This document shows, in pieces, positions 34,871-63,049 of a stretch of DNA of 64,000 nt. A model generated the notes under the pieces. The model worked only from the letters and a program-made list of their open reading frames with translations. It searched no databases and was not told the DNA's origin. The stretch is from Pseudovirgaria hyperparasitica. Its lineage: Eukaryota. The first letter of the stretch is position 1. Each line of letters begins with the position of its first letter. The translations under genes and the position numbers were made by a program. The stretch is taken from assembly GCA_010093815.1 (NCBI GenBank), contig ML996568.1. One strand, 5' to 3'.

Positions 34871-37800
34871 ATGGAGCCTGAACATGATGTTTCGTCAGAA
34901 GACGAAGAGAAGTCGGGATCTTTGGACAACGAGATACACATTCCAAGGTTGCATCTGCAACCTCAACAACTTGGGGTGACTTGGACGAACTTGACCGTCA
35001 AAGGAGTCTCCGCAGATTCAACTATCAACGAGAACGTCTTCTCCCAATTCAATTCTGTACAGCAGTTCAAAGAGAGCCGCAAACCTTCTCCTTTGAAGAC
35101 AATCATAGACTCGTCCCATGGACATGTCAAGCCCGGTCAGATGTTGCTTGTGGTGGGAAGACCAGGAGCAGGATGCACAACATTGCTCAAAATGCTGTCG
35201 AATAGGCGAAACGGTTATAAGAGCATCGAAGGGGAGGTGTCTTTTGGTTCTATGGATCATAAAGAAGCCAGTAATTATCCAGGACAGATAGTGATGAGCT
35301 CAGAAGAGGAAGTGTTCTTTCCCACATTAACCGTAGGCTTATCGACTGGAGTACGACACACATATGCTAACATATCTAGGTGAGCCAAACGATGGACTTT
35401 GCCACGAGGATGAAGATACCTACCCAGATTCCAGATGGTCAAACCCCTGAAGAGTACAGACTGACCCAACGAGACCACATCCTCAAACTTTTAGGCATTG
35501 ACCATACTCTGTCAACTAAAGTAGGAAACGAATTCATACGAGGCGTTAGTGGAGGCGAACGAAAGCGAGTGTCTATTGCCGAATGTCTCGCGACCCGCGG
35601 AAGTATATTCTGTATGGATAACTCAATTCGTGGTCTTGACGCCAGCACAGCGCTCGAGTTCACTCGTGCCCTTCGCGCCCTTACAGATATCCTAGGCCTA
35701 ACAACAATTTGCACATTCTACCAGGCCGGCAACGGCATCTTCAATCTATTTGATCAAGTCCTCGTACTGGACCATGGCAAACAGATATTCTATGGACCTC
35801 GTGAGCAAGCGGTTCCTTTCATGCAAGATCTTGGATTCTACTTCGAACCCTCCGCGAATATTGGCGACTCACTCGCAGGCGTCACTATTCCCTCGCAAAG
35901 AATGATCAGAAAGGGGTACGAAGATCGTTTCCCGCGGACAGCTGAGGAGATCAGGGCGGCATATGAGAAGTCCGACATCAAGAAAGAAATGGAGTCCACA
36001 TACAAGTATCCTGGATCTCAAAACGCAACTCAGGTCACCCAGGCCTTTAAGGAGAACGTCCTCTCCGAAAAGCACAAGTCAGTGCCGAAGACTTCTGGTC
36101 TGACTGTGGCCTTCTTAACCCAAGTCAAACACTGTACAGCTCGACAGTACCAGATCTTATGGGGTGACAAACCTACATTGTTCATCAAGCAAGTTTCCAT
36201 ATTGATCCAGGCTCTCCTGACTGGCTCACTCTTCTACAGTGCAAGTGCGGATTCTACTGGTCTGTTCATCAAAGGGGGTGCTATCTTCCTTGCAGCCCTG
36301 TATCCTGCCTTATTAGCTATGTCGGAAACGACTGATTCCTTCACTGGGCGTCCTGTCCTCGCCAAACATCGCGAGTTCGCCTTCTACCATCCAGCGGCAT
36401 TTTGTATCGCCCAAATAGCTGCTGATATTCCGGTATTGCTCGTTCTCCTGACTCATTTCTCGTTGATACTGTACTTCATGGTTGGCTTGAAAATGACCGC
36501 TGGTGCTTTCTTCACCTTCTACTTTTGCCTCATTGCGACATCATTAGCTTTCGCTTCCTTCTTCCGATTCATCGGTGCAGCGTTCCCTAATTTCGAAGCT
36601 GCCTCAAAAGTCTCCGGATTTGCTATCGCAGCAATCGCCACATACGCTGGATATATGATACAAAAGCCGCAAATGCATCCTTGGTTTGTCTGGATCTTTT
36701 GGATGTAAGATTACTATTGCTGTCCAGTCATAGTTCCAAGCGATGCCATGCTAACCGTTGACAGAAATCCAATGTCGTATGCCTTCGATGCACTGCTGTC
36801 GAATGAATTTCGTGGTCAAAACATCGATTGTGCTGGCCCCAACCTTGTACCATTAGGACAGTCCTACACCGATAAGGCCAATCAGGCTTGCACAGGTATT
36901 CGAGGTGCTCCAATCGGGGCGACATCTCTGACTGGAGACGAATATCTGGGAAGCTTGTCCTTCAACCCTGATCGTATCTGGGGCAACATTGGCGTTGTTT
37001 TAGCGTGGTGGGTTTTTTATACCGTCTTGACTATTGTCTTCACTTCCCGTTGGAAGTCGGCATCAGACGGTGGCCGCAGTCTCTTGGTACCGCGAGAGAC
37101 AGTCCATCTTGTACGAGAGAGACGGACTGGGGAAGACATCGAGTCTCAGGCTCAGGAGAAGGAGTTGGCAGGTAGCTCAACAGACTCTTCCGCTGTACCA
37201 TCATCAGCGAATTCGCTCAACAAACAGCTCTTACAGAACAAATCTGTTTTCACTTGGAAGAATCTGTCGTATACCGTCAACACCCCAGACGGCGAACGCA
37301 AGCTCCTTGACGATGTGTACGGATGGGTAAAACCGGGTATGCTTGGTGCGCTTATGGGCTCATCTGGAGCTGGTAAGACGACCTTAATGGACGTGCTTGC
37401 TCAACGCAAGACAGACGGAAAGATCACTGGCTCAATTCTCGTCGATGGACGAGAATTATCCCTGTCATTTCAAAGGTCCGCTGGCTACTGTGAACAGCTC
37501 GATGTCCATGAACGCATGTCTACCGTACGTGAGTCTCTCGAGTTTGCGGCACTGCTACGTCAGTCGCGCGACACACCAGACGCAGACAAAATACGCTACG
37601 TCGATTCTATAATCGATTTACTTGAGCTTCATGACATCGAACACACGCTGATCGGTCGTCCTGGGAATGGACTGAGTGTCGAGCAGCGCAAGAGAGTGAC
37701 CATTGGAGTCGAACTTGTCTCCAAGCCGGAGATCCTTATCTTTCTCGACGAACCCACCTCTGGTCTCGACGGCCAAGCGGCCTTTGGTATCGTACGCTTT

Positions 37801-39150
37801 CTTCGAAAGCTTGCTGATATTGGACAAGCTGTCCTGGTCGTCATCCATCAGCCGTCCGCCAGTCTCTTCGCTCAATTTGACACCCTTCTTCTCCTTCAGA
37901 AGGGTGGTCGTATGAGCTACTTTGGTGACATCGGCGAGAATGGAGCCACAGTCAAGGACTACTTCGCACGCCATGGCGCCCCCTGCCCTGATGCTACCAA
38001 TCCTGCCGAACATATGATAGACGTCGTGTCCGGCTCTCTTTCGAAAACACATGACTGGCACCAAGTCTGGCTCGACTCCCCAGAACATAAACGCGCTCTC
38101 GAAAACCTAGATTCTCTCGTGTCTGATGCAGCATCCAAGCCCCCAGGCACTGAAGACGATGGCCACGAATTTGCAGCATCCCACTGGACTCAAACTCGTA
38201 TCCTCATGAATCGCATGAACAGGGCTCTCTACCGCGACGTCGAATACGTCAATAACCGCGTCTTTCTGCACATCGGCAGTGCCCTCTTCAATGGCTTCTC
38301 CTTCTGGATGATTGGTGACAGCGTCTCTGATCTCCAGCTGCGCCTCTTCACTATCTTCAACTTCATATTCGTCGCGCCTGGCGTGTTCGCCCAACTGCAG
38401 CCCCTTTTCCTCGAGCGCAGAGATGTATATGAGGCCCGCGAGAAGAAAAGCAAGACGTACTCCTGGCCCGCCTTCGTCACTGCGTTAATTGTCTCCGAAA
38501 TCCCCTACCTCCTCTTCTCCGGACTCCTCTACTTCGTCTGCTGGTACTACACCGTCGGCTTCCCCACCTCGAGCGCCCGCGCCGGCGCAACACTGCTCAT
38601 CATGCTACTCTACGAATTCCTATACACAGGAATGGGCCAGTTCGTCGCTGCATACGCGCCCAACGCCATCTTTGCCGCGCTCGTCAACCCAGTCATCATC
38701 GGGGTCTTGGTCTCTTTCTGCGGCGTGCTGGTGCCCTATGCGCAAATCACGGCGTTTTGGCGGTACTGGCTGTATTACCTCGATCCATTCAACTACCTCA
38801 TGGGTGCGATGCTGGTGTTTACGACATGGGGTGTGGACGTGCAATGTCGCGAGAATGAGTATGCGATCTTCGATCCGCCGCAAAACCAGACGTGCGGCGA
38901 CTATCTTTCAGAATACCTCCTTGGCGCAGGCGCAAGCTCGAGGTTGTTGGACGCGAGTGCTACGCAAGCGTGTAGGGTGTGTCAGTATAAGAGCGGCAGC
39001 GAGTATTTGCAGGGGTTGAATCTGATGGAATATCGCACGGGCTGGCGTAATGTTGGGATTGTGACGTTGTTCTGCTTCTCGAGCTATGCACTTGTGTATG
39101 GGCTTATGAAGTTGCGCACAAAGGCGACGAAGAAGGCGGAGGGGAAATAG
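34871..39150 (+). CDS. Full-size PDR/ABCG multidrug transporter (AtrB-like); exons 34871-35332, 35380-36704, 36765-39150
   Basis: NBD1 GRPGAGCTT and [16 protein letters not shown]2 [24 protein letters not shown] and LDEPTSGLD, with NBD-TMD-NBD-TMD topology. Two canonical introns with GCTAAC branch sites. Confidence 0.95.
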
Positions 39151-41034
39151 ACTGGGTGCTACGAAAGATGTATAATAGACGTGTGATAGATTGTAGATAC
39201 CAACAGAGCTCTCGAGAGTACTACGACCTTTTGTGTAAGCTGTATTTGTCTGAGAAGAATGAGACGGTCGAATTAGCTAATTTGCGCATCATCTTCCTCG
39301 ATACACAGCCTACCCTCCTGTCTCATTATCCTCGAACATTTTGCGTCCTAGGGCGAAAATAATCGCCATTCAAATGAAGATCCCGAAGAGACTTCGTTGT
39401 AAGATGCTGGAGTAAAGAGCAGAGAGAGATTTGAAAGCTGAGAGAAGATCAAGTATTGCCCTGATGCTGAAACTGATAAGTGATGTGAGGCTGTTGCGAG
39501 ATGTCCCTGAATCGTCCAGATGATGAAGGACCATGCTTAGATAACATAATTTGTCATGTTACTGTACAGTGTTGCCTCTTCTACCTGCCAATCTTTGTGC
39601 AGTCACCCCTTATGTTGGTTCACGGTTACTCGCGTACATTGCCACCCGACATAACTCTTCACTCAAATCCCGCAAGTCCACTTCAGAGTTCTTACGGACT
39701 TAGTCATTGCTGCAAGAATTAAAGTGACCAGTACCTGTAGATATCGCCCACTACGAGCTTTTGTGTTCACCGGCAAAGAGTTTCTGAATTTAGGCTTGAC
39801 CCTGACCGTGCTACGATCTCAATGCTGCCAACAAGCCCTTCAAGTGGACCGAAACCCGCAATTGCTCGAGAATCGCCTAGTTGATATTCTAGAGGCGTAT
39901 GTGGATAGGCTCTCTTCCTGCGTCAATTTTCTGGTTGAATTTGGTCGATGATCAAACGAGCGAGCGCGTACAAACGAACGAGTTCGACTGGGGTTATCCA
40001 CACGTACTCTGATTCTGGAAAACATCTAGCTGTGGATATCGTCTAGAACACTTCGGATGGATGGAAAATTGTTCAGACAGAAGACTATTCCGAACAAATG
40101 TTGCGCCTTGATGGAGAGTCTCGGTGGCCCATGGCTTGACTAAGACTTGTCCGGAACGCTTTCCGACTGTGCATATCGATATCGGATCATCCCATCGCAC
40201 AAGCGAACACCTGCTGCCATGGGGCCGGTCACCTTTGGGGTTCAACAGCGCAAATACACGGTATATACGGCAGGATCGTCGGCAGGACGCATTTTCATAG
40301 ACGCTGGACCTTTGTGGAGAGCTCCCCTTTCGTCCTGTCTAAGCAAAGCAAGGTTCAGCCGGAGTCTAGACTCTTCATCTATGGAGGCCCGTGCGCGATG
40401 CTGCGGTCTCGAAAAGTCCGATAATAATGGGTCACGCAGATCGCACTTGGATGCATCGTCAGAATAGACTGGTGCTTGTTGGGCTCCCCGAGAACCCAGA
40501 TCCACGAGTATCATAGAGACCGAGATATTCATCAGCTCCCTCTTATGTATTGATCGATACTGGAAGATGCCGATTTCATAGCAATGCACAATTTCCACAG
40601 GCCGAACTTTGATCGTCGACGCTAATGCAGGTACCGCTACCAAGTCCGATCGCTGAGGTTCGTCCGAGACGGGAAGACACATGGCGCGGCGCGAGTAAAG
40701 CACTAAAATAGTTTTGGCTATCTGCCTAATGCCGTTTTCGGTACTTCGGCTGCATTTGAATTGGTCCATCTCCACACTTCTGTTAGCCTTTTTCGCGTCA
40801 GAACTATTGTTCCATTTATCTTGCCTCCTTATTTTGCACAGTCGCGAAGCCCGAGGATTTGGAGGGCTTGCGCCATCTTGGTTAGAAGCAGTGCCGGAGG
40901 CATATATATGTAAGGATCGTCGTCTGCTGTGATGTGACGATCGCCAGGCCACTAATTGTTTCCAATAATACTCACTTTCGAGTCCTGTTCACTCTCTTCT
41001 ACACACTCGTTTAAAACAGAAGATTAGTTATTGC

Positions 41035-41976
41035 ATGATGTTCTTTTCAATTCCTCTCATTGCCGCTTTTGCTGCGACCACACTCGCTGCACCCACGCAG
41101 GATCTTGAACAGCGTACCATTTTCGGATGCAACTGGTTTTCGACATGGGCGGCCAAGTGCAGCACCAAGGGCAACCAGAAATCCTCGTCCTACTCCATGG
41201 CCCTCCCTTACTACACCACGACGGACCGCAGCCTCGTTGCAGGAGCGCCCTGTGGGAATCTTTGCCGCCAGGACTGGCAGTGTAACAGCTATGCTGTTGG
41301 TCAGGGTTCTTGCCGACTGTACAGACTCAGTTCGTAAGTTTGCCATGCAAGAGTGAACCTCACATGCACAAGCTCGCTAACACAAAAAACAAGCCCTCTT
41401 ATCTATACGGCCAGCAACAGTGGAAGTCTTTCATTCAGCGATAAATGTTGTGTCTTGAACGACCAGCCAGCACCTGTTCCTCAACCTTCTCCTTCCACCA
41501 CTCCGTCGCCATCGGCGGTCCCGATTTCGACTGCGACACCTACACCATCTGGTTTAGCTCCATCCAGTTCTTCCTCTCTATCAAACCCTATTCTCACACC
41601 ATCCCCAACTCCATCGCCATCTGAAACCCCAGCACCGATCGTAACTCCGTCGCCGTCCCCGTCTCCATCGCCCAGCACAACAGACTCGCCCGTGGTCCCT
41701 AGTAGCTCGGCCTCGGACACGCCAGCGCCCCAACCTACTGCCCCAGCAACTTGTGGCACTACAGGCTATGATAAACAGACCCCTGCTGCCTTCTTGAACG
41801 ATACATCTGGCAACTCTGGAACAGTCGACACGTGTCGTGCACTCTGCGCAAAGACGGCAACCTGCCAGAGTTTTGCTGTTGGGAACAACCAGTGTTTGTT
41901 GTATGCTGCGCCTGTTGCAGGAAATCTGAACCCTGCGAACAGCCCTTATGCATTTTACGATTTGAATGGTTGCTAG
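41035..41976 (+). CDS. Secreted protein with two PAN/apple-like Cys domains separated by a Pro/Ser/Thr linker; exons 41035-41333, 41394-41976
   Basis: Signal peptide plus a short propeptide ending LEQR. Two copies of the C-x3-C-x5-C-x-S-[YF]-AVG-x3-C-x-LY pattern (CGNLCRQDWQCNSYAVGQGSCRLY; CRALCAKTATCQSFAVGNNQCLLY). Intron GTAAGT...GCTAAC...AAG. Confidence 0.85.
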
Positions 41977-45432: not shown

Positions 45433-48428
45433 CTACGTGTTCTGGGTTGCGCCGAGCGCGCGGAACAAAGCCTGGATGAAATCGGACACTGTTGCGACAA
45501 GCTACGCATGGTTAGGAAGTGCAAAACAAGACCGAACGTGATAAAGAAAACTTACAGGAGTAGCGTCGCCGATGAGCTCAGACGTTTGGGAGACAAAGAC
45601 ATCAGACAAAAGGTTCTGGGCGTTTTGCAGTAGTTTCACGATACCATCCACACTGTCTGGGGTGAGAATAGGCATGACTGCGTCTACGATGCCCTTGATG
45701 TCGATGTTGTCGATTGTGTCCAACAACGGCATGATCTGGTCGACTAATTTCGCAATATCGATCTTTCCGAGGGCGCTCACGAGCGGACCAGCGTTTCCGA
45801 TCAAAGAGGTGGTGTTCTTGACGAAATCATCCGTGAGAAGGTCTTCAGCGTTGTACAAGAGGTCGTATATACCCTTAATGCCAGACTCGGAGAGTAAGGG
45901 CATCAGCTGGCGGAATATGCCGACAAAGTCGATAGATGCGACGTCCTCAAGCAGCGGCTGAACTTGCTTACTCAATGGTGAGAAATCGACACTGGTGACG
46001 GCGTCTAGGAGAGGACCAATTTGGTCAACCAGGCCAGAGTAATCTGGTCGGGTAACGGCTTGGAGGATAGGGGAGACCTGGCTGACCATGTTGGTAAAGT
46101 CGACTGATGTTACGGCAGACAACAATGGCCCGACTTGGTCAACAAGATTGGAGAAATCGATGGAACTGATCGATCCAAGTAGAGGATCGACTTGGGAGAT
46201 CACGTTGGACAGGTCGTGAGTGCGAAGATCTGCCAGAACAGGGTTTAATAGATCCACGACAGGCTCCAAATCCAATTTGCCAAGCTCTCCTACTAGAGGA
46301 CCTGCGCCTGTGATAAGCGAACGGGTGTTGTTGACAAAGTCTGGTGTCAGGAGGTCTTCCGCATTGTCGAGCAGCATGAGAATCCCATTGATACCATCGG
46401 ATGTTAGGAGTGGTTTTAGGGCGTCGAAGAGACTCTTCAGGTCTAATTCGTTCACCTCGTCGAGTAAGGGTGAGACTTGATCTAAGAGCGGGCCGACCTT
46501 GTTCAGCAATCCGGCTATATCTGCTTCCGTCAGGCTTTGAAGCAGAGGGGCCGCGTCAGACACCAAGGTCTTGAGTTTATCGGTCGTGTCCTTGTCGAGA
46601 AGACTCTCAGCATTATCCAAGAGTGTCAGGATGCCTTCAATGGACTCCTTTGTCAAAAGAGGCTTTAAAGATTCGAGAACACCGCCGATATCAACTTCGT
46701 TCAACGATCCTAAGAGAGATTTCAGAGTGTCGACTGTGTTCTCATCCAAAAGGTTCCCAGCGCTGGTTACCAAGCTCTTGAGCTGGCCGGTCGTATCCTG
46801 ATCTAGGAGACTCTCGGCATTGTCTAGGAGTGTCAAGATGCCTTCGATTGACTCCTTCGTCAAAAGTGGCTTCAGAGAGTCCAGAACGCCGCCAATGTCG
46901 ACATCATTCAATGTGGACAGAAGGGATTTCAACGTATTTGTAGTGTTCTCGTCCAAGAGATTCCCAGCGCTAGATACTAAGCTCTTCAGCTGGTCGGTCG
47001 TGTCTTTGTCCAAGAGGGTCTCCGCATTGTCCAGGAGGGTTAGGATGCCGTCAATGGAATCTTTGGTCAAAATCGGCTTTAATGAATCCAAAACGCCAGC
47101 AATGTCAACATCATTTAACGTAGACAGCAGACTCTTCAATGTATTGACTGTATTCTCATCGAGCAGGCTTTCGGCATTTCGGAGTAGACCAACGACTCCA
47201 TTGATTTCGTCACGATTGAGGATTGGTGATAACGCATCAAGAACACCAGCAATGTCGACGTTATTCAACGTAGACAGAAGGTTCTTAAGTGTACCGGTCG
47301 TGTCCTCATCGAGCAGAGTCTCGGCATTTCGGAGTAGACCAACAACTCCATTGATCTCGTCACGGTTGAGAATGGGAGATAAGGCGTCAAGCACACCAGC
47401 GATATCAACGTCGTTCAGTGTAGACAACAAGCTCTTAAGCGTGTTGACGGTGTTTTCGTCCAAGAGTGTCTCAGCACTACTTAGAAGGCTCACAAGACCA
47501 TTGGTACCATCATCGGATAATAACTTCTGAGCGTTTCTGAGAAGGCCAACGACACCAGTGATCTCTTCTCGAGTCAGCAAAGGAGAAAGTGCATCCAATA
47601 CACCTTCGAGATCAATCTGTTGAATCCTCTCAATCAACGGTGATGCTTGTCCAATCAGCGTGGAGGTCTGGTTGACGAAATCAGGCGTCAGAAGGTTGTC
47701 GGCGTTGGTGAGAATGTCAGAAATCTTGTCCACGTTGCCGGAAGTCAGGAGCTTGGCAGCGTTGGCTAAGAGACTGCCCAAGTTTGCTCCATTGAGCTCG
47801 TCCACAAGGCTCTTCAAATCCAAAGAACCGACCAGATTGAGCAGATCCCTAATCTGGGTTGGAACAGGCGGCTGCAACGTCTCTGCAAGGTACGTGAGTG
47901 AGTCATGTACGGCCTGCAGGAAATCGACAGTGAGCTACACCGACATATTAGCTTCTTCTCTTTGTTATATCGACGGAACATCAATTTAGCGGCACTTCAC
48001 AGCAGTTCTTCTCTGCTAGAGCACGGCCATACTGATGCCCATTCATGTGCACCTACAAGTTCAGATAGGACTTTGACCAAATCACCAAGCTGGCCCAATT
48101 GAGATGTGAGGGTCCCGATCGCGGTGATAAGATCTCCGAGATCACCAAGGCCATCCAGAAGGTTGGGACTATTGTCGCTATTATTCGATTGTCGTCGGTA
48201 GAGAGGGGTATTGCGTTTCTCATTGTTGTGTTCTCTTAGTAATGCGTTCATTTCTTTCAATGTCGACGTCAATTCCGACCGGGGAACCAGAGCCAAGTCA
48301 TGCTTTGCCAGAATCTCTTCCAGTTGAAGACTATTTAACAGCTCGGTTGCAGATTCGACATGACTTTCTGCAACTGCAACACTCATGAATGGGGTGGCCA
48401 CGGCCAACAACACGTTCGAAAAGCGCAT
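45433..48428 (-). CDS. ~939-aa secreted Leu/Asp-rich amphipathic-helix repeat protein of unknown function; exons 48428-48057, 47934-45556, 45501-45433
   Basis: Signal peptide MRFSNVLLAVATPFMSVAVA and a pro-region ending EKR-NTPLYRR|Q. Introns 48056-47935 (GTAGGT...GCTAAT...TAG) and 45555-45502 (GTAAGT...CTAAC...TAG) keep frame. The protein ends LVATVSDFIQALFRALGATQNT*. I found no Cys or Trp. Confidence 0.88.
46560..47470. repeat. Intragenic tandem repeats with 150-bp and 207-bp periods
   Basis: Near-identical blocks at 47161 and 47311 (offset 150) and at 46631, 46838 and 47045 (offset 207). They encode 50-aa and 69-aa units. Confidence 0.9.
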
Positions 48429-49166
48429 CGTTAGGACTGATACGGTGCTGCGGCCTGCTTCGATCCCAGGGTCAGTCGTTCTGGAAGGAAATTCGGGACT
48501 ACCTGACGAGCATAAGAGATTTGGTGTAGTGCGATTGTTCTTATCATCCAGGGAATTGGCAAATCCGGGGTCACTCTCGCACGGCGCTGGTGCTCGGACT
48601 GACCTGACTTTCACATGAACCGCATAATTGCTGTGGAGTACTGGAGCACGGAAGTCCTAGTGACGGCGAATGGGATCGTGCAGAAGTGCGAGCATCGACT
48701 GATGTCCTTATGTTTACTCCAAATTACGCTGCAGCTTCCGCACGCAATTCCAGTAGAATCACCACCGATCGGCGGGTCGGATCAGCGATTGCTCGACCTC
48801 TTCCGTCGCTGTCGGCGGCGCTAGTGTTAGCTGGACGGCTGGTAGGACTCAAAGGATTCACGCTAACGATTTTGAGCTGTCAGCCATCAACACTAGTGGA
48901 AGTCTAATCATGTTTTTGGTCACGCGAGGCGGAAGAACTATCATGTGAATGTACACTCTCTTTCCGGCCAGCACCTTACTTCTGGGGTTGCCCCACGGGG
49001 AACGGCAGAGTGCGAAGCCCAGGAGTCAAGACAGAACCTCATTGATAACCTAATCTGTAGTTGTGAAATCTCCTGCGCGTCAGGTCGTATAGCCAGGTCA
49101 TTCTACCCTCCTTACGCTATTACACATATCCCAGTAGGAGTAGTATTTGCGTGGAAAGGGTTCAAA
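48429..49166. promoter_or_regulatory. Shared 738-bp divergent promoter between the helical-repeat gene and the DUF3712-like gene
   Basis: Head-to-head ATGs at 48428 (-) and 49167 (+). Several CGG/CCG triplets lie near 48765-48825; no factor assigned. Confidence 0.6.
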
Positions 49167-50715
49167 ATGCCAGCTGACGACATCAATCCGTGGAAAGACC
49201 AAGCTGAGGACCGCGGCGCCGATGAGACAAAGGCAACGCTGAACGAACAGCTCGACCACAATGAGAAGTCCCAGAATGAAGACATGACATCACAAGGAGC
49301 CATGGCAGCAGGTGCACGGGAGGGTTCGGTGCATTCAGATCAGAGCGGTAGTGATAATTCTCTGGTGAAAGACAGGAATGCCTCGCCAATGACAAAGAAG
49401 GAAAAGATAATGGCACATTTCAAGCGATTCTGGATATGGTATGCTGTCGGCATTTTCATACTCCTTGCAATATTGCTCCCCATCACGTAAGTGTTATCCT
49501 AAAATCAACTGAAAGTTATCCTTACGATATCTACCCAGATTCACGATCATCGTTCCACGAATCGTACAGAACGTGATTGACGGTAATGATTTACCAATCT
49601 ACAGCGGCAGCTTGAGTGCCTCCACCCCAACTAGCTTAAAGATGGTAAACATCAACCTAAGTATTGCCTACTGTACAGGAAGCTAATAGCTTATATTCAA
49701 GGAAATCAACACAGCATTCCATGTGCCCCTAGGCGTGAAGATCGACCCGTTAAACCTGCAACTTTACAACATCGAAACACCAGGTTACTCGCCATTCCTC
49801 AACCTCTCTATACCAACCTTGCACATCAAACGGCCTCGGACCAACTTTACGATTCCAATGCAAGACATAGAATTGGACGACGTGAGTGAGCTAACCAATT
49901 GGTTCGGCCAATTCTTCCTGCAAGAGCAAACGAATCTCGGAGTACGTGCTGTTCCCGATGTCAGTGTACACCTGGGAGCACTACACAGTACCAACAAACT
50001 CGATAAAACCCTTTCCATTCCAACGCTACAGAATCTGAAAGGGGCGAATATTGAGAAACTCAATATCCTTGTACCACCGGATTCGAACGGATACAATATC
50101 AATGGTAATCTTTCTCTGCCAAACTACTCCCCCCTGAGTCTTGGCCTTGGAGACCTTACACTGAACCTTATGTCTAAAGACTTGAAGCTGGGATTAGTGC
50201 ACCTCGACAATCTCGTACTAGCACCAGGTAACAACACAGTTCCATTCTATGGCAACCTATACCTCAACCAGTTTTCCCAGAATCTGGGTGCACTGCTGGA
50301 TGGGCAGAAGGAGGCTCTGAATGGGGGTTACATCGAGATCAATGCGACTGGCAATACAGCTATGGTGAACGGCCAGACAATTCCCTATCTCCAAGACATG
50401 CTCGCCACCAAGACACTTGTTTTTCACATAAGCGTCATTACTTTCCTATCAGATGTCATCAATGGTATACTCGGCGGTGACAGGGGCTCAATCGTCGATG
50501 TGCTATCAGAAGTCCTCGGCAACCAAACACTTATCGAGAATACATTGAACAACTTCAATGTCAGCAACCACATCCAAGGCAATGCGACAGCTAGAGGGTT
50601 GGCGAAGAGAAAGATTGACATCCGCGCGGTCATGGCTAAGAATATTCTTAGGTGGGGAATGAGGAAACCAAGCTGGCAGGGCTTCCAAGAAAGGTCTGTG
50701 AATCAACTCGACTGA
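49167..50715 (+). CDS. Type II single-pass membrane protein, DUF3712-like (LEA-2-like beta-rich ectodomain); exons 49167-49486, 49539-49644, 49702-50715
   Basis: Acidic disordered N-terminus, then HFKRFWIWYAVGIFILLAILLPITFTIIVPRIVQ (TM anchor). Beta-rich luminal part with LPNYSPLSLGLGDLTLNL...LDNLVLAPGNNTVPFYG...GNTAMVNGQTIPYL, the pattern I recognise as DUF3712. Many N-x-S/T sequons and two GT-AG introns. Confidence 0.85.
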
Positions 50716-53673
50716 ATATTCATTCGACTTCGGGCGTTCATTGTTGCATTGTCAAACGGAGTTTAGGCTGGCTCTATGCATCACGTATAATGCATAATGC
50801 AGTCATGTTCATGAGAAATCACCAACACCGCACATACATCGCAAGACACTGCAAATGAATGTAGAAATAGATACTGCCCTGAATATCACGTAGCTAACAG
50901 AAGGTTTAGTCGAGCCCAGCTAGACCACCACTACTGCACTACTAACGCCCCAACAGCGCCCGCTCCCGTATGGCTAAAGGATGTCAGATTAAGCTCCCAA
51001 CTCTCGCTGCAGCTATTGACCGAGTATGAACAAGCCAACGACGTCATCTATCGCTTCTCAATCTAATCGAGCAGGTTCTAACGCAAAGGCTTGCCTCGCG
51101 TGACCATACCATGTCTACGCGTTGTGGAGGAGTCCAGCCAAAGTGCAATCGTCCTGGATCCGACGGTCACACACGGGCCGGGGATCGCGACAGTGACCGA
51201 ATCCGGTATCAAGTCTGAGGTGTGCGCCGAGCGTGATATATCTTTCCCGCGCATAGTAGGGAATCTTGTATGAGTGCCACCAACCCGGTATTGATAATAT
51301 GCAAGATCCAAGATGTGATGCGGAGAAGATCTTGGCCATAACGAGGCACTCCAGCCTTCTCCAGATTCTGCTCTGCATACGAGTCCTTAGTAGCTTCCCC
51401 TACCGCTGCGCCCCGCGTTCTGAGCCTGTACACGTTCGAGTCAGTTCACTAATTACCAAGTTCTTCGGCACTGTGGCCGCAGAATCCAGGATGCTCCCAT
51501 ATATTATTACCTAGGGACCTGTCGATCCTTGCCTCATCTCGGCGCTGCGAGATATCACAAGTAAACAACTCTCGCTCCATCCATCCTTCAAAGCCAACCT
51601 CGCCAGAAGAAAACAAACCCTTAATTGCCTGGCAGACTCTGCGCGCTGAAGTCTCCATGGCGAGGACAACACGACTAGCGCTCTTTCGCATTCGTATAGT
51701 AATTATTTGGTATCTTAGCTTCATCGCCGATTTCGTGCCGTGCGCGCGAGGCGTGCTTTAGCAAAAGGTGCACTAGTTCATTAGCTCTTTAGTGCCATTG
51801 CGCTACGTATGTTTGGGGGATGTGGCTTGTGAGGTCAGTAATGGCTTTGACTCATGTTTTGTTGATGATTGCGATGCTGTGCGAAGGGATGTACCAGATG
51901 GACATGCAGGCAGGTTTCGCTGCTTCATAGCTTAGCATATGGAGGAGATTGACCGATGCTATCGTACTACTATTATGTGGACTCCTAGTAAGCTGTGATT
52001 GGGCGCGTTAATGGCTTTACGAAGAGAACTTTGAAGGTATGAGTCCCTCATATACAACAGTCAGACAGTCACCCTATCTGCCATCTGATCTTGAGACCTT
52101 CTGGTGTCACATGAGACGAGCTAATAAGATGGACTGACTGTCGAGAGAACAAGAGCCTTTTCAGTATAGAAAGTCTGGGTGTGGTCACGTGACCGCGTAC
52201 GACACTACATCCCGAGTCACATGACCTTCCCCGATCTTGCCTTAGTTGGGAGACTTCTTCGTTGTCTTCATCAGCCTTTTCCATTCAATGATTCTCACTA
52301 ATTTATGCTCATCTCTGACATGAAGTACTTGCCGCATTCGTACGTCAGTGTGCCACTAATCGCTTCAGTAGGAAAGCAGGCCTTAATTCACGTTGCTCAT
52401 CTCTCCGGTGGTCTTAGTAATAAGCCTAGCTCTCAAAGTACTATATCATTCCAACTAGTCGGCAACTCAAACTGAACTTATAGATACCCAGCATTCCACA
52501 CCGCGTAGGATTCATTGGTGTCGGTCTTTCGTGGATACTTCTTCACGGGCTCGTCGGTATGCGATCATGGATCAAGGCATTGATTCCACTCGCAATCGTG
52601 TTATACTTCAGTCATCACGGTCATAGATGTGTTTGTTTGACTGAATATATCGTCGTCGCTGACTTACCTGCGCAGTACTTGTGCGCGAAATTTAGGAAGT
52701 ATCCCTAAACACTAAGCGTCACTTGTACTGTTCACATTCTTCATATTTCGGTGCGAAGTATGGCCGGGGTGACGTCCGTACTAGCTAAAGGATTCTTCTA
52801 TGTCGTGTTTGTCTTCACTACCTCCAATGAGCTACTTTGTTTGTCGACTGCATGAGGGTCCTGAAAAGTCAAGGGATCCATTAATATGCCCTAGTTATGG
52901 AAGATATGCCGAAAGTGATGCTTTCACCGCGAAGATAAATTTCGAGCGTCTTGCTTGACCCAACAGTGTTGTCTTCAGAACGGTTTGGTTCTCTTCGAAG
53001 TAAGGGATGGTTTGGGATGTCTCTGCGCCGCGTTGGGATCTAAGTGCCCGACGTTCCACCACTAGGAATAACTACAGTAAGACTGTTCAATGTTTAATAT
53101 AGGCAGTACTGCTAAAAGCTTCAAGGCGATTAGCTTTAGTCATCGCAACTATGTCGGCTTGCGTGTTGCCTGGCGAACGAAAGAAGCGATCCCCCATTGT
53201 GATGATACCATCATTTGCACATAAGCTGGTCATAATGTTGCTTGAACGCAGTTACTCTCTGATGGACGTGTGAAGGCCCTCCATTTCGTCATACAGCAGC
53301 ATCAAGTCGTTGAAGATTTGTCCCCTGGCATGAAAACGGATGAACTACTTCTTAAAATGTATCGTTCATAAGTTGAGCATCCCGGTCTTGAGACGACTCG
53401 CCTACCCTTGTCGACTTGTTGAATCTGCCACACGGATCACGGAATATAGGCAACGGTGGAGTGACTTGTCCCGGACTCTAATGTAGCACCGGAAGCAAGG
53501 GATGACCTTTCCGCTCCCGTGTCTGAGCACCGGGCGAACCACATGGGATCCATGCGCACTCAGATACATTAGAATGCGACACTCGAGCCTTTCATAATAC
53601 TTAAAGTCCTGTTGACTTGTTTCCTCAAGACCAATACACCACCATTGACCAATTCATCGCCATACCTATCACC

Positions 53674-54546
53674 ATGAAGCTCTTTCTAACTCTACCCCTT
53701 ATTTTGTCCTGCATCTTCTTCGAGACAGCAAAGGCTTTCAAGCACAAGCCTGCAGTTGTCCTAGTCCATGGTGCTTGGGTAGCGCCTTCCTTTTGGAACC
53801 TCACTGCTGAGAGGCTGCGTGCTGATGGCTATAATGACATTGTAATTACCGACTTCGTTAGCGGCAAGATCACAAATCCCCCGACAAGTACCCACCGTGA
53901 CGATGTTGCACTCGTGCAGGAAGCACTGAAGCCTCTCGTGCGCGCCGGAAAGGAGATCATTGTTGTGATGCACTCTTATGGGGGTCTCGTAGGCAGCGAC
54001 GCAATCGAGGGCTTTGTCAAGAAAGCCAGCTACGGATCAGTCGGGGGCGTTATAGCAGGAGTCTACAGCACGGCTTTCATCGTTGAACCAGGCAAGGCAC
54101 TATCCGACTACTTTGGTGGTAGCACACCAGCATTCATCGTGCCTGACGTAAATATTTGCCATTGCTCACCTGTATAGAATCACTTTGCTGACTATTGCCA
54201 GCCTCAAAATCCCGCCTACGTCAACGTCGACAACCCACTCGATATTCTCTTCAACGACTTCACCGATGCCCAGGCTGCAAAGTATCTTCCTGATGTCCGC
54301 CCGGCTGCTGCTGCTACTTTTGGATCCAAGGCACAGTATGCCCCTTGGAAAGACATACCTTGTTCCTACATTGCTACTGCCCTCGATAAGGCTATTCCAC
54401 CAGCTCTTCAAAAGTCCATGTACGACGCAGTTCAGGGACAGAGTCTTCGAAAATGGCCGTTCTATGAGGTTGGGGGCGGTCATGCTTCGGCGATCAGCAA
54501 GGCTGCCAACGTCGCGAAGCTGATCGAGCTTGCCGACTCGAAGTGA
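53674..54546 (+). CDS. Secreted alpha/beta hydrolase (Abhydrolase_6 / methylesterase-like); exons 53674-54147, 54202-54546
   Basis: Signal peptide, VLVHGAW oxyanion motif, HSYGG nucleophile elbow, LDKAIP (Asp) and GGHAS (His). Intron GTAAAT...GCTGAC...CAG; ends ELADSK*. Confidence 0.9.
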
Positions 54547-56596: not shown

Positions 56597-59500
56597 CTAC
56601 GCCTTCTTCCGCGCAAAGAGCTTCAGGATGCTTTTGTTCTCCTTTGCTGCCGCAATGTCCAGAGCAGTCTTACCTTCCTTATTCTCTCTTAGAGCTTCGC
56701 AGCCCTCAGCTATCAACATCTTAAAAACCGCCGTAGTCTCGAATGAGTCTTTTAGTCGCGCAACAACATGCAATGCGGAATCACCGTCGTGTGTAGTTGC
56801 CCTGATGTCTGCTCCAAGGTCGATCAAGTAGCGCAGGTTCTTTTCGCGGCTGAAAGATCCTGGCACTGGCACTTGATCCTTCTCAGAATGTGGGTAGTCA
56901 CCGGGTGGTACGGTAAGGTGCGCAAGTAGAGGGGTCTCGCCGGCGTTGTTGCGAACATCGATGTAGCCACCCATATAGATATATTTCTCGATGATGTGTT
57001 TCCGAGTCTCAATATTTTCAAGCCCAGCACGCGCGATGTAATGTAGGCATGTATTTCCACTAGGACCAACGTCGAACAGATTAGGTGAGAAGGAGGTAAG
57101 TAATTGCTCCAATGTCGTATTACCGTGAGCTCTGAGGGCGTCGAGGAAAGGTGTTAGGCCTCTTTGGTCCTTCATATGAACGAGTTCTGCAACACCGGGA
57201 GTTGTCAAGATATGTGCAGGAATCTCCTTGTCGCACTTGCTCGATTTCCTATCGGGGTTTGGATCCACAAAGTAGTGAAGAATATTGCGGCCGTCATGGT
57301 CCACCGCAAGGTAATCGATAGAGCGACTGTGTAGGTCGGACCGCATGAGCGCATCAGCAGCTGTGACATATATCGCTTGGAGCTGTTTGCGAACATCCAT
57401 ATAAAGAAAGCTGCGTCTATATTCGTGAGTCTGTGTTGATTGAAGAGCTGCCATCAAGACCGTCCGACCATGGGGATCTCGGATCGTGAGATCAAGTTCA
57501 CCCCTTTCAAGGAACGCTTCCAAACGTTCTGTGGTAGCGCGTCTGAACAGGTAGTGGATCAAAGTCTCATCTTTATTTATTGGAAGGTCAATCTTCGCAC
57601 CATGATCAAGGAGAAGCGTAATCATGTCAAAACTTTTCTGCTTGGAGCAGCCGGCGTGTGCGGATGGTATACAAGCTATAACAAGGGGGTACTCGAAGTC
57701 ACCTTCGTCGTGCCGCATATCAAGTCCGGACAACCTATCATTTGGCTTGTACGGTATGTTGGGATCCGCTCCATGATCGAGGTAGAGCTGGACCAACTGT
57801 GGACTGGCCGACTCGATCGCAGAAATGAGGACGTTCTTGTTCCCGGCCTGGCTGTTCGCTCCAGCTTCCAGGAGTATCCCAACAATGTCTCGTCCATCTC
57901 TCGCTCTGTTTAGAGGGACTAATCCAGCATTGTCCACAATATTTGGGTCTGCGCCATTGTCAAGCAGTACTTTACAACATTGTGGTGCAAAGAAACCAGG
58001 GCGACCGTAATGATCAGAGCTTGCAACGTGCAATGGTGTAGCACCGTCCTGGTCAAGGGCGTTGGGGTCCGCACCTATGACAATTAACTTTGTTCTCTGA
58101 AACTATACCGAATAGTTGATGGATGGCTCACCAAGGTCTAGGAGATATTTTAAAGCTTTAATATGCCAGAATGAGGTACCCCGAGCAAGTAAATGCAGTG
58201 CAGTGGATCCTTGGACGATATTCTCTGTTGAATGATTACCAGTCTTCTGGAATACTAAGCCATGAGTATTGACGTCTATATTACCATCGTTCCAGAGTAA
58301 TTCGATCATACTCATATTATAATTAGTGCTTTTACATGCTGTCTGAAGTAGTGGCTGCGGCAGACCATTGCGCGAGGCAGTTGACTTGAAACCACGAATA
58401 AACTCAGGATCGTCGTAAAGCATGCCGAAATGAGCGACTTTGCGAACTGCTCCCGTCATAGCTTGTGAAACAAGGTAAGTGACTGGCGTATCTTGCGACC
58501 AACAAGTCGAGTCAGTCATGTGCCAATTAATACCATGTTTCATTAGATTGTTCACGCCAGTTTCGTGTACGTCTCTAAGCCGATGCCAGATGTCTGTGCT
58601 ATTAGTATAGCCGTCGCCTTCACGTGCGGTTTCGAGCCAATCTGTTCTCTTAAAGAGATCGTGAGTTGCTTCTGACTTCTCGCCAGCGTCTCTCAGCAGT
58701 TTTCTAATTTCGCCTGCCCGGTAAATGGAACTCATTGGTTTACTATCGTGATCAATCTGTGGCAGCATATCTTGCTTCTGGGGTGCTTTTATCGCATGTT
58801 CACCGGGCAAACTTTCGACAAACACTTCAAATGCGGACTTTTGAGCTTTGTTGCGAATATGTATGTTACAACCAGAGTCGATGAGTAGCTTCACAGATTC
58901 CGGCTCATGAGACTGACAAGCGTAGTGCAGCGCAGTATTTCCCAAACAATCGACTGAATCTATGCCGGACGATGAAACTTCTTCTAGTTGTGCCAAGAGA
59001 AGAGCAACCGTATCGGCACAACCAGATTTAGCAGCGAGATGGAGTGGAGTCTCGCCTTTCGAATTTGAATAAGTCACATCAGCACCAGCATCAATAAGCT
59101 CATAAGCTTCCCTTGTCGATGATAAGATCGCGTTGTGGAGTGCCATCATACCTTCGCTATCTGGAGTGTTTGGGTCGAATTTAGGATCCAGGTCTAACAA
59201 TACGGACACAAAACTTTTTCGATATGGTATGTGGTGGTGCTGGTACCGGTTTTTCTCTTTTCTATCGGTCGATACAGTGCTGAGATGTGCTGCGGTTTGC
59301 CCCCTACTGTTGACTGATCGTGGGGATATACCGGCTTTGACGAGCTTCGAGATGAATTCAATGTCACCAGATGACCCGTTGAAATGTGGCGCAAATTCAT
59401 GGAGCAGGGTATTGCCAGAATAATCCAGAACCATAGGATCGGCTCCATACTTGAGCAAGAGATCGAATGTGTTCGTGTCAAGAGCGTCATAGCTTCGCCT

Positions 59501-62500
59501 TACAGAACAAATTTTATGCAATAGGGTCTTTCCTTGATTAGTCCTTGTCAAGACTGACGGGTGCTGTGGAAGATCAAGGTATAGCTGGACTAGATGAGGT
59601 TGGAGCTCTACCGCTGTCATTAGAACAGACTCGCCCTCAAGATCGCGGATTTCCAAATCAGCACCATGATCAATGGCGAGATCCAATTTCTGCTCGAACA
59701 ATGTTTTCCAAGATGTACCTCGCGGTGGGCCTGTGGCGGCATGGGAATGTAGGGAGGTCTTGCCACTCTTATTCTGTGCGTTGATCCAAGCACCTCGATT
59801 GGTTAGTAGAGTCAAAGCTCCCATGACTGTATTGCTATTCCGGTACATATAGTGCAGCGGACTGTTACCATCGTTGTCCTGGCTGTTGACATCTGCTCCA
59901 TGCTCTAAGAGCAGCGTCAGTGCTTCTAAATTATAGTGAGTTCGTGACAAAAAGCTGCGTCGACATCAGTTTCAGGCCGGAATAAGCCACACAAGTGAGC
60001 TTACAGATGTAGGGGTGTCTTCCCATCCGAGATTCGCGCAATATTCGGATCTAGGCCAGCTTCCAGTACCCTAGTGATGGTTTCCAGCTCATGCAGACTA
60101 TATGCACATGCCTGGTGCAGCAGAGTGTTACCGTCCTTGTCCTTAGCTAGAACATCAGCCCCAGCTTTTATGAATAGCTCGAGTGATCTCAGCATTGGGA
60201 ATCGTAGGCTGATGGTATGGAGTAGAGGAGTCCTCATGTCTCTATCCCTTGCCTCGAGATCGGCGCCGGCCGCCAGGAGTAAATCTAACATTTCTTGGAT
60301 GGTTTCATCTTGGTCACCGTACGGGCCGCATCCCGCGACATGGTGCAGTACGCTTCGAGACTCATCACGTTGTGATACTGGATAAGATGCTGACTCATCG
60401 TCACAGCCTTCCATATCGATCCCCACGTTAATGTCAGCCCTACGATCCAGGAGAACTTTTACGCACTCAGGATTCCTCGATTGAATGGCATGGATAAGGA
60501 TAGGCTTGCCACCAATAGTTCTGCCAACACCGCCATGTCTAATTTTAGACCGACAGTCAGGAGACAATTTTGCATCATCTAACAGGAATGTCATCAAAGG
60601 GGCGTGTCCCCCACTTACAGCATCACCAAGAGCTTCGTGAAGGTCCTCGCGGGTCAGATAGGGGATCATCTCTCGAACCGTGTCAATGTGACCCCGATTT
60701 GCAGCGAACTGCAGAGGATGGTAACCTATGCTTGACTTGGCATTACCACATTTCCTCCCAGGATCGCGAGTCTTGCCAGTTTTTGGACTGACACCTGCTT
60801 ATATGTTACCGTGACCCTTTATATCACACGTGATCGTGCTATGACGACCCTTACCAGCTTCAAGTAACAATCTAACTACCTGCGCATGATTTCTGGATGC
60901 TGCCTCGTGTAGTGGCTTATGGCCATTACAACAGTCCATATCTGGATCTGCGCCAGCATCGAGGAGCAGCTTAACCATTCCAGTATGACCAGCTTTTGAT
61001 GCATAGTATATCGCTGTAGCATCATAGTCATCTCGCGCATTGAGGTCAACGCCGCCACGAATCAGTCTCTGTGCCCAGTGTAATAAGTCGAACCCAGCAG
61101 CAATGTGCAAAGATGTGGTTCCTTTCCTTGCCAGAGTGCCTGTGTCTGAGAGACTCCCATACTTGTTTCGCGGTAAACTGGCATTATAGAGGTTGATCCA
61201 AGCTCTGAAGTGCGAGCTTCTGGGTACAGAAAATCTGGTAAGCTCGTCGTAGAAACTGTCGTCTGTTGAGTCCGTCAATTGGCGAGTATGATAGAACCAG
61301 TTTTTGACCGCGTAAGACATCAAGGCCACCTTCTCGTATATTCCTTCAAGCTTACGCATTGTTCGAGGTCTGCGATAGTCATACTCGTCATCCAGCTCAT
61401 CCTTCTCGTCTGCTTCACTCTGCTGGTATAGGCTGATCCCCTTGACACCATTGCATTGAAGTGTGTAAAGACAGACCAGTGCAATAGCTCTATGTGCACT
61501 TGAAGATTCCACGACTGGGAAGCTCTGCAGTCCGCGCAGTCTCCTATTCGCGTCTGTCAGGAACTCGGTAAAAGAATGATGTAGTACACCAATGGTCTCG
61601 TCTTCCATGCATTCAAGCAGAGGGCCGCAGCCTGATCGCACAAGTTCTTTCCGACGATTCCATGATGTGGAGGGAAGGCATGATTTAAGAGCTGATGCGA
61701 TTTCGATGAGACGCAAAGGTCTGGAGGAATGCGTTACCAGCTGTAAGATGAATAGTTGGACGGATACATCGATCCCAGTCCTACGAGCATGTTCGGCTAG
61801 AACGCTGTCGTACATCGCTTCGAGCCCGACCGGAATTTTGAGGATGACATTACGGAGGATTTGTTTATCCTGGTTGGATGATCTGACAAGATCGGTGATT
61901 TGCTCCAGCATGAGACGTGCATAAAGAAACAGTCCCTGACTACGTTCGCACACGGTCTCACACACCAAGTTCTGCAGTTCAAGATTGATCCCATGTGTGA
62001 CAAGCTTTCCGGCACGTTGGCGAACAAAGAGTGCTATATCACGCTTGACTAATTCTTCCTCAAGGCTGACATGAATCACTTCAGGGTCTCTCAAAGCTTG
62101 CTGCAGGTACTGTTTGGGGCGACTTGTCATCAATAGCTTGATTGTTTTTGGCTTCAGAGTCCCAAGCCGGTTGAGGCGCTCCAGAAACTTGTGATCAAGT
62201 TCCATCTCATCAAGAGCATCAACAATGCAGTAGGCTCTTGGCAGAGATTTCAGAGCCGTCTGGAGATGCCGCCAGAGTTCTTCGCTTGACACAGTCTCTA
62301 ATGCCACTTTGCTTTCGACGTGTTCCCAAAGAGACACTTGCAGGATGGCGCTAGAAGGCAGTAGCTGAGACAACCAGTCCCGGAGGAGCGAACGGCTGGT
62401 CCGATTCTTCTCTATGATATGGCGAAAGAAAAAGAATAAGACTGGAACACATTCGTCTTCGGAGAGTGATTTGACCATAGAAGCAGCGATAACGCTCTTG

Positions 62501-62784
62501 CCAGCACCAGGTACTGCCTTAATCCAGATAGAACCATGATCGGGCGATAGATGCCACAGATCGAACTGAGTTGTTTCTCGGATCCATTCTCCGGTGCCGG
62601 GAGCCTGCGAAGAAAGATGTCGCATGTATTCACTGGAACTCGCGGCGTAATCTGTGGGCTGAAGCCATGCTCGGATCTTTGTCACATCGGGTTGCTTTCT
62701 CGCGACAATTTCATTAGCGACATCATCGAGATCGACTCGCTCAAAACTATCACTGCCATCGGACAATTCAGTTTCAGATGTCAT
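56597..62784 (-). CDS. ~2006-aa NACHT NTPase + ankyrin-repeat protein (fungal NLR-like); exons 62784-60855, 60794-60005, 59954-58132, 58074-56597
   Basis: PGTGEW, Walker A AVPGAGKS, Walker B CIVDALDE, LMTSRP, SQGLFLYARL and winged-helix HHSFTEFL, followed by many ankyrin units (e.g. GETPLHLAAKSG, GNTALHYAC). Three GT-AG introns join four track ORFs in frame (total 6021 nt). Confidence 0.92.
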
Positions 62785-63049
62785 ACTTCAGATATTCTTT
62801 GATCAGATAAAGAGCGCGAATATGTAGACATGGTATTGTCCTTTGGCACCACGAAGAGTTAGTTGCCTATCACGATTAGGCAGCAGTCAGGTGGTGGGAC
62901 TCCACCGAATAGAAACTGTGACTGTGGTGAGATGTATGATCATCCATGCGATCTAGCTGTTTTCGGGTGATCCACCGACCGCTCCCAGAAATGATACCTC
63001 TGCACACGTGACCTTATGTATAAATTATCCCAGAAAACCATATAGGTCA

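Follow-up and report, generated by a model that had tools for sequence, protein, structure and literature searches.

Herein, we describe a pair of divergent genes, A and B, in a 64,000-nucleotide stretch of the genome of Pseudovirgaria hyperparasitica (the window; contig C4, positions 1,240,001-1,304,000; fungal genome of 35.4 Mb). Gene A encodes a secreted protein of tandem amphipathic repeats, and gene B encodes a membrane protein of the DUF3712 family. On balance, we lean towards the reading that A and B form the centre of a cluster, conserved in Pezizomycotina and co-regulated, whose role is to mobilise lipid or another hydrophobic compound for catabolism.

Gene models and linkage of A and B

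Gene A lies on the minus strand, with its ATG at 48428 and three exons (48428-48057, 47934-45556 and 45501-45433) encoding 939 amino acids (aa). Gene B lies on the plus strand, with its ATG at 49167 and three exons (49167-49486, 49539-49644 and 49702-50715) encoding 479 aa. The two start codons are 738 bp apart and divergent. All four predicted introns, two in each gene, were skipped exactly and with canonical ends by contigs of X1 and X2, two public runs of one sample (run type unrecorded), which support the gene models rather than co-expression or transcript ends. One X1 contig bridges the 738-bp gap, which is not proof of a single transcript. An earlier note on this DNA had placed two secretory-pathway genes around a divergent gap of this length, and both genes were found where it had placed them. 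The spliced protein of gene B equals the database entry P0157 (EJ05DRAFT_508992, P. hyperparasitica) in length (479 aa), with 100% identity across the queried part.

The linkage of A and B was then followed in the same genome, in metagenome contigs and in annotated genomes. The genome holds one other A-matching locus (C11) and three DUF3712 loci, both counts being lower bounds. At C11 (G000:C11:614040-619467, equal to L016 2040-7467), four genes follow one another, namely a 185-aa paralog of A and genes for DUF2236, DUF3712 and cytochrome b5 proteins. The A paralog and the DUF3712 gene are about 3.2 kb apart; by chance, a second A would fall so close to either of the two other DUF3712 genes with a probability of about 4e-4. 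Scanning metagenome contigs with the C-terminal motif of the A family gave 13 loci, 12 of them distinct (L022 and L023 are the same), of which five were too short to show B. B was present in six of the seven distinct loci with enough flank (L022, L024, L027, L029, L030 and L032). The order A, DUF2236, B was found at L022, L027, L029, L030 and C11, while L024 carries a divergent pair of long A and B like that of the window and L032 a tandem pair. Among three annotated genomes in which both genes have locus tags, A and B are two tags apart in two (N7462_002161/002159 and V493_05212/05214). Flanking genes differ between lineages, and the linkage persists across several fungal classes.

The linkage of A and B is thus conserved. 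The head-to-head layout is not a conserved trait, since the genes are divergent only in the window and at L024 and elsewhere stand in tandem or with a third gene between them; the divergent pair envisaged by the earlier note is conserved as a linked pair and not as an arrangement. DUF2236 adjoins A in all six short-A metagenome loci with flank, as well as at C11, and in none of the three long-A loci with flank; neither the window nor L024, L028 or L032 has this gene. The commonest form of the cluster is A, DUF2236 and B, sometimes with cytochrome b5, and the window represents a two-gene form with an expanded A. That A and B are neighbours kept together by inheritance or by a common promoter, with separate jobs, is an explanation to which we give very little credence. 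It would suit the loss of B beside A at L028 and the existence of unlinked members of both families, but the linkage has outlasted several fungal classes, a change of flanks at every locus, the loss of the middle gene and three orientations, and the second pair in the same genome has the low chance probability given above.

Some features of the metagenome loci were recorded in passing. L028 and L032 are orthologous, their flanks sharing 82-84% nucleotide identity, and their long A follows genes that resemble, by reading of the translations, a short-chain dehydrogenase, a hydrolase, a flavin monooxygenase and possibly a CRAL-TRIO lipid-binding protein. A gene resembling indoleamine 2,3-dioxygenase, again by translation reading, is found close to the three-gene cluster at both L022 and L029.

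Architecture of A, B and the DUF2236 protein

Protein A has a signal peptide, contains 20.8% Leu, no Cys and no Trp, and carries a net charge of -82. Its mean hydrophobic moment was 0.354, compared with 0.248±0.010 in shuffled sequences, and because it exceeds the shuffles, A is amphipathic beyond its composition. The earlier description of A as a Cys-free, acidic, Leu-rich protein of amphipathic helices is borne out by these values; what it had missed is that A is a true tandem-repeat protein, with a 19-aa unit, super-repeats of 50 and 69 aa, and matching DNA arrays of 150 and 207 nt. Self-identity peaked at lags of 69, 19 and 50 residues (0.255 at lag 19), and short relatives of A also peak at lag 19. 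No period of 11 or 22 was detected in A (self-identity of 0.075 at lag 11 and 0.092 at lag 22; median 0.091).

Exon 1 of gene A (48057..48428, minus strand) encodes the signal peptide (about aa 1-21), a pro-region extending to a dibasic RR at aa 78-79, and the start of the helical part. Judging from the sequence, the RR may be a Kex2-like site for processing of the pro-region, and the family consensus contains an RQ-type site. Intron 1 (47935..48056, 122 nt) is followed by exon 2 (45556..47934, 793 aa), which contains the 19-residue amphipathic helical units and both super-repeats; the DNA arrays span 46558..47160 (period 207 nt, or 69 aa; 2.9 copies) and 47092..47438 (period 150 nt, or 50 aa; 2.3 copies). 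Intron 2 (45502..45555, 54 nt) lies after the family's C-terminal motif, a position common to the C11 paralog and the metagenome loci, and exon 3 (45433..45501) encodes the conserved C-terminal amphipathic helix and the stop codon. After the signal peptide, A has no hydrophobic segment of transmembrane length. The AlphaFold model of A consists of short helices throughout, with no global fold (pLDDT 58, pTM 0.23), and a fold search with this low-confidence model returned generic helices only (best Z 6.6).

Apolipoproteins and perilipins have a repeat period of 11 or 22 residues. A resembles them in consisting of extended series of amphipathic helices that Pro frequently interrupts, predicted alone to have no confident tertiary fold, but differs in its period of 19, its strong acidity and the lack of a Pfam match. 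The apolipoprotein-like repeat design proposed earlier is not supported by this period. Pfam profiles of apolipoproteins and perilipins matched neither the long exon of A nor any of 72 short family members. A may function like an apolipoprotein; it is not an apolipoprotein. Saposins and hydrophobins carry six or eight conserved cysteines, a pattern absent from A, which has no Cys.

A search of 1.84 billion representative sequences yielded 102 proteins at E ≤0.001, mostly of 120-250 aa and including some evident false matches. The family ranges from about 120 to >900 aa, and the window A is about five times the usual length. All named members are from Pezizomycotina: Aspergillus, Penicillium, Pseudogymnoascus, Lepidopterella, Glonium, Emmonsiellopsis, Pyronema, Fusarium, Claviceps, Thermothelomyces, Humicola, Aphanocladium and Thozetella. 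In a Pfam scan of the 72 short members, three had one weak match each, with no family in common. The ESM Atlas search with A gave no named family, and its structure matches had a TM <0.5 by query; the nearest cluster, without Pfam assignment, bears the automatic name 'putative Cell wall galactomannoprotein' (score 0.93). A thus represents an unnamed Pezizomycotina family without a Pfam model.

Three other indications on A were set aside. Pfam matches of the window protein (Dark_CARD, at E 1.8e-10 although none of its stretches passed individually, as well as DUF4197 and some more) were rejected as summed repeat noise. The PDB sequence search with the A profile gave four matches, the best being a designed coiled coil, and was taken as a composition effect. 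A GPI anchor is unlikely on our own reading, made without a predictor, as the tail is charged or polar and the best-conserved motif extends into it. A second long subfamily from Penicillium and Aspergillus (P0017, P0019, P0024, P0025, P0040, P0093 and P0111) has a Ser/Thr-rich N-terminal region, and its linkage to B may be absent. The repeats of the 1292-aa Fusarium protein P0012 were read as scrambled, possibly through an assembly error.

The properties of A could also be those of a surface coat, in which A would assemble with itself into a film or fibre of amphipathic character, covering hyphae, spores or hydrophobic substrates, and B would anchor or chaperone it, with no central role for lipid transfer. 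The HsbA/Mp1p proteins and the repellents of Ustilago are analogues for such a role; HsbA (PF12296) and Mp1p-type proteins are secreted fungal helical lipid-binding proteins. A is likewise secreted, helical and from Pezizomycotina, the automatic Atlas name points the same way, and a secreted, Cys-free, repetitive protein of about 120 to >900 aa is what structural coat proteins look like. We nevertheless consider this explanation unlikely. None of the 72 short members matched HsbA or related Pfam families, HsbA was not among the matches of window A, A is built of tandem 19-mers and varies in length, and a coat would leave unexplained the linked cytosolic DUF2236 protein, the cytochrome b5 and the upstream motif common to catabolic genes.

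Protein B matched DUF3712 (PF12505) with 86 bits (cut-off 24.1, E 3.3e-24). It has the topology of a type II membrane protein, with a disordered N-terminus, a basic cluster and one hydrophobic segment at about residues 88-116; hydropathy gave a single peak of 2.87 at window start 94, and the helix in the model covers residues 77-122. In the model (pLDDT 80), the N-terminus is of low confidence and is followed by a single membrane helix, two beta-sandwiches (pLDDT >90) and a helical tail. In a fold search against 48,161 chains, the LEA-2 structures 1xo8 (Z 6.5, rmsd 4.5, 137 residues aligned) and 3but (Z 6.2, rmsd 5.8, 121 aligned) ranked first and second, and TMEM106B scored Z 4.7; Foldseek with B gave generic beta-sandwich matches (TM ≤0.22). 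DUF3712 is an out-of-register annotation of LEA-2, according to the available text of 10.1101/2021.03.12.435176. The LEA-2 fold was assigned to B because the two top-ranking folds, the Pfam match and this published link were taken jointly. B thus combines type II membrane topology with two LEA-2-like domains, as the earlier note had supposed of its topology and beta-rich ectodomain and had stated of DUF3712. From the predicted topology, these domains and A are on the same side of the membrane.

Exon 1 of gene B (49167..49486, plus strand) encodes the low-confidence cytosolic N-terminus, the basic stretch and the first part of the transmembrane helix. After intron 1 (49487..49538, 52 nt), exon 2 (49539..49644) encodes the end of the helix and the start of the first LEA-2-like domain, and after intron 2 (49645..49701, 57 nt), exon 3 (49702..50715) encodes the two tandem LEA-2-like beta-sandwiches, an amphipathic tail, a dibasic site and a C-terminal peptide; the DUF3712 match lies within it at 49792-50169. 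The amphipathic tail (aa 387-426; 50434..50553) is predicted to be helical with low confidence and occurs in cluster-linked B homologs only, being absent from the unlinked C17 paralog. The tail noted earlier is thus present, whereas its proposed likeness to A was not detected as homology: the best whole-sequence E of the profile search was 0.044, and the window B was not among the 20 best matches.

B resembles the known LEA-2 proteins (PF12505; yeast Tag1 and Vac7, human TMEM106B) in its PF12505 match, type II topology and two LEA-2-like domains. It differs in the extra amphipathic tail and dibasic site and in having a dedicated, linked secreted partner; neither a partner of this kind nor such a cluster is mentioned in the available portion of 10.1101/2021.03.12.435176. 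A complex prediction for the pair of Penicillium macrosclerotiorum (P0177 residues 88-428 with P0137 residues 32-121) scored 0.00 twice; made without alignments and with the fold of the partner uncertain, it gives no verdict. Genes of the B family include Pc13g15630, Pc21g13830 and ATEG_06100. ATEG_06102, two tags from the latter in A. terreus, is mentioned in the accessible text of PMC5488093 as a source of mis-mapped reads and is a candidate A gene. P0232 seems to be without the segment between the two LEA-2 domains, likely through a gene-model error.

The middle gene at C11 matched PF09995, the MpaB/rubber oxygenase catalytic domain, with 209.7 bits (cut-off 23, E 8e-62). Among seven aligned DUF2236 proteins, those of C11 and L030 keep an Arg-x-x-x-Thr and His motif, which we take to resemble the active site of Lcp, and the motif is replaced in L022, L025, L027, L029 and L034. 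A PDB sequence search matched no Lcp structure by which the putative active-site positions could be anchored. From these replacements, the proteins of the latter five, Penicillium-like loci are probable pseudo-enzymes. Across the loci, the DUF2236 enzyme seems to pass from an intact to a degenerate state and finally to loss, with A and B retained throughout; this sequence of events is the one that the comparison suggests. Since the motifs are replaced in five of seven proteins and the gene is missing at four loci, catalysis appears dispensable while A and B persist. The genome of P. hyperparasitica contains a second, distant DUF2236 gene. The Aspergillus oryzae DUF2236 proteins LdrE and LdrF are located on lipid droplets, whose number and size are altered in the deletions, as given in the accessible text of 10.1101/2022.11.24.517872. 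The middle gene resembles this DUF2236/MpaB/Lcp group, LdrE and LdrF included, in its strong domain match, and the cluster departs from it in that the gene is absent from the window and probably catalytically dead in the Penicillium-like loci.

These data bear on another explanation, in which the cluster would serve the uptake and oxidative breakdown or detoxification of a specific isoprenoid or polyene, with a DUF2236 haem dioxygenase as the central enzyme and A and B as substrate carriers. Plant or microbial terpenoids and rubber-like or carotenoid-like compounds would be the kind of substrate. We judge this explanation to be distinctly unlikely. The identity of PF09995 as an oxygenase domain is in its favour, and the two loci that keep the Lcp-like motif, C11 and L030, are the only ones with an adjacent cytochrome b5 gene; but the motif has been replaced in most of the aligned proteins, and the window, L024, L028 and L032 have no DUF2236 gene.

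The upstream element CATGTGAA

The upstream sequences of the cluster genes were examined by a de novo count of 8-mers over 600 bp at 11 loci, leaving out L023 (the duplicate), L026, L031 and L033. The E-box CATGTGAA was present in 8 of the 11 loci, compared with 0.6 expected, and with correction for 32,896 8-mers this was significant (4e-4); including L031, which has upstream sequence and no site, gives 8 of 12, the fairer count. In the window, CATGTGAA occurs twice, both times within the divergent intergenic region (48429..49166, 738 bp) and nowhere else in the 64 kb. One copy faces each gene, at 48610..48617 on the minus strand (182 bp before the ATG of A) and at 48942..48949 on the plus strand (beginning 225 bp before the ATG of B), and the probability that both would fall in the gap at the background rate is about 4e-4. 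Upstream of the C11 cluster, there are one CATGTGAA and several CCTCGG sites. Since the orientation of CATGTGAA is mixed across loci, it is regarded as a DNA element, and its reading as an upstream ATG-TGA start-stop open reading frame was rejected.

The occurrence of CATGTGAA was then determined at metabolic genes of the genome, named from Pfam and translation reading. Of 10 catabolic genes, for fatty-acid and glyoxylate metabolism, four have it in the upstream 1 kb, namely those for isocitrate lyase, for the multifunctional beta-oxidation protein, for one carnitine acyltransferase and for one MaoC-type dehydratase (p 4.5e-4 at a background of 0.04 per kb). It was found within 1 kb of none of six lipid-synthesis genes (INO1, CHO2, OPI3, FAS and ACC1 among those named). 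A phospholipid-synthesis regulon was rejected on the latter count. The inositol/choline element CATGTGAAAT of yeast has CATGTGAA as its core, as given in the available part of PMC3852131. CATGTGAA is identical to the first 8 of the 10 bases of this UASINO/ICRE element of Ino2/Ino4, and the gap contains the 8-base core twice and the full 10-mer not at all. The UASINO regulon differs in that the genes of phospholipid and fatty-acid synthesis here lack CATGTGAA, which is found at catabolic genes instead. Crf1 is described in the accessible text of PMC8232033 as a bHLH (basic helix-loop-helix) regulator of carbon and lipid metabolism in Magnaporthe and Fusarium, and that of PMC6962311 reports an Ino2-like factor of A. 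niger on CASSTG boxes. Crf1 is a candidate binder of CATGTGAA.

CCTCGG occurred 17 times upstream of cluster genes, compared with 6.9 expected, divergent promoters being counted twice, and preceded eight of the 10 catabolic genes and two of the six synthesis genes; we take it to be the FarA site. GATA, PacC, Crz, BrlA, AbaA, unfolded protein response and SRE-like motifs were not enriched upstream of the cluster genes. SYGGRG, presumably a CreA-type site, was enriched there (92 vs 59 expected), which would fit glucose repression, and ACCCCAGA was seen upstream in 5 of 11 loci. The genes for isocitrate lyase and malate synthase share a strand and a stretch of about 6 kb, with one unrelated gene between them (G000:C20:87171-92862).

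Proposed lipid transfer and origin of the window copy

Considering A and B as a lipid-mobilising core, we propose the following mechanism. After removal of the signal and pro-peptide, A would have no stable fold alone and would wrap or extract lipid as a disc, coat or oligomeric channel. On the luminal or outer side, it would take up lipid and deliver it to a putative hydrophobic groove between the edge strands of the LEA-2 domains of B, whose amphipathic tail may be a docking or membrane-contact arm, and B would pass the lipid into the membrane. In the fuller cluster, a cytosolic protein of haem oxygenase fold, with or without cytochrome b5, would receive or oxidise the lipid, possibly on lipid droplets. 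The anatomy of A and B, their linkage and the common upstream motif are observed; the lipid cargo, the hand-off and the compartment are inferred. LEA-2 domains have been predicted to be lipid-transfer domains, and their membrane relatives are vacuolar or lysosomal, in the available text of 10.1101/2021.03.12.435176. Because of these known LEA-2 membrane proteins and the lipid-droplet link, the compartment is about evenly split between the cell surface or medium and the vacuole lumen.

In the transfer from NPC2 to NPC1/NCR1, and in that by saposins, a soluble carrier hands lipid to a membrane acceptor. Both systems are named as analogies in the accessible part of 10.1101/2021.03.12.435176. The likeness would be that a luminal or extracellular carrier, as proposed for A, feeds a membrane protein on the same side; the differences are that no fold or sequence is common, that A lacks cysteines, and that the A and B genes are clustered and probably co-regulated. 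The two-gene lipid module of the earlier note agrees with the conserved unit, with the presence of CATGTGAA upstream at many loci and with the lipid-pointing context, and it had overlooked the DUF2236 and cytochrome b5 genes.

Several observations speak against A and B as such a core. The lipid role of LEA-2 is itself a prediction, the fold Z-scores of B are modest (<8) and tied with unrelated beta-sandwiches, and orthology of LdrE and LdrF to the cluster gene is not established. The third DUF3712 gene of the genome (C17) is unlinked, with neither an A in its vicinity nor the tail. At L028, no B accompanies the long A over 7.4 kb of upstream and 10 kb of downstream sequence, although the orthologous L032 has B, and in Penicillium capsulatum the long A (N7492_001098) is far from the listed B (N7492_006706); this listed A belongs to another long subfamily. 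CATGTGAA is missing at L028, L031, L032 and L034, and it was not significant when related loci were pooled (5 of 7 lineages; 0.32), which is why it was examined at other genes. There, the difference between catabolic and synthesis genes was not significant (Fisher p 0.23), and the test of catabolic genes had been prompted by ICL1, itself one of the four with the element, the later batch giving 3 of 8. CCTCGG is absent from the window gap.

The origin of the window copy was assessed with a tree of 28 second-domain sequences of B, a hand-picked subset rooted at the midpoint with no topology test. The window B grouped with Clonostachys, L024 and L032 at 100/100, apart from its own C11 paralog, and the closest named relatives of the N-terminal part of A are from Sordariomycetes. 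P. hyperparasitica is presumably a Dothideomycete. With thin sampling, the window copy could be a paralogous cassette of old standing or could have been transferred, and the long two-gene form in this Dothideomycete may derive from a Sordariomycete.

The species distribution also bears on the possibility that A is membrane-active against fungi or bacteria, or acts in self/non-self recognition, with B protecting the producer or sensing A. P. hyperparasitica and Clonostachys, the closest named relative for B, are presumably mycoparasites, and the amphipathic helices, the pro-peptide and the tight linkage of two genes would fit toxin-immunity logic. We find this explanation very improbable: A is strongly acidic (net -82) and has no hydrophobic stretch of transmembrane length beyond its signal peptide, the saprotrophic Penicillium, Aspergillus and Pseudogymnoascus commonly carry the cluster, the C-terminal motif of A is conserved and not diversifying, and B also occurs unlinked.

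The region around the pair is roughly as gene-sparse as described earlier, the nearest clear genes lying about 3.5 kb to the left (ending at 41976) and 2.9 kb to the right (starting at 53605). The left neighbour (40969-41976, plus strand) encodes a secreted Pro/Ser/Thr-rich protein with weak PAN-domain matches, and the right neighbour (53605-54546, plus strand) an alpha/beta hydrolase with a possible signal peptide. By translation reading, the window also contains a long open reading frame (ORF) resembling the Niemann-Pick C1/NCR1 sterol transporter (4944-8426, plus; 37 kb from the pair and probably unrelated), a tyrosinase-like gene (14312-16363, minus), a galactose-oxidase-like gene (29639-32209, plus), a PDR-type ABC transporter gene (34817-39150, plus) and a large ankyrin-repeat gene with a NACHT-like N-terminal part, split over several ORFs (56597-62787, minus).

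B is a member of a known family, and A belongs to an unnamed one. The cluster is not described in the literature searched on DUF3712, DUF2236/MpaB, member tags and family accessions, a search outside which most subscription journals lie; this agrees with the earlier statement that no such fungal pair was known. We regard as possible, yet doubtful, an undescribed route of filamentous ascomycetes across a membrane, in which a new 19-mer repeat protein of adjustable length would form a lipid-lined disc or tube and lipid would pass from it to a tandem LEA-2 protein and on, at the cytosolic side, to a lipid-droplet haem oxygenase with cytochrome b5, within a bHLH regulon of lipid catabolism.

Lipid handling by the LEA-2 proteins Tag1, Vac7 and TMEM106B rests on fold prediction, according to the available text of 10.1101/2021.03.12.435176. 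The cluster gives independent genomic support for this role and names candidates for a partner, a downstream enzyme and an inducing condition. If true, the ascomycete route would provide the first natural partner and pathway for a LEA-2 domain of the Tag1/TMEM106B type. A defines a widespread unnamed family of secreted proteins with amphipathic 19-mer repeats. Such proteins could provide a new scaffold for solubilising lipids and may be relevant to the use by moulds of fats, waxes or their own stored lipid.

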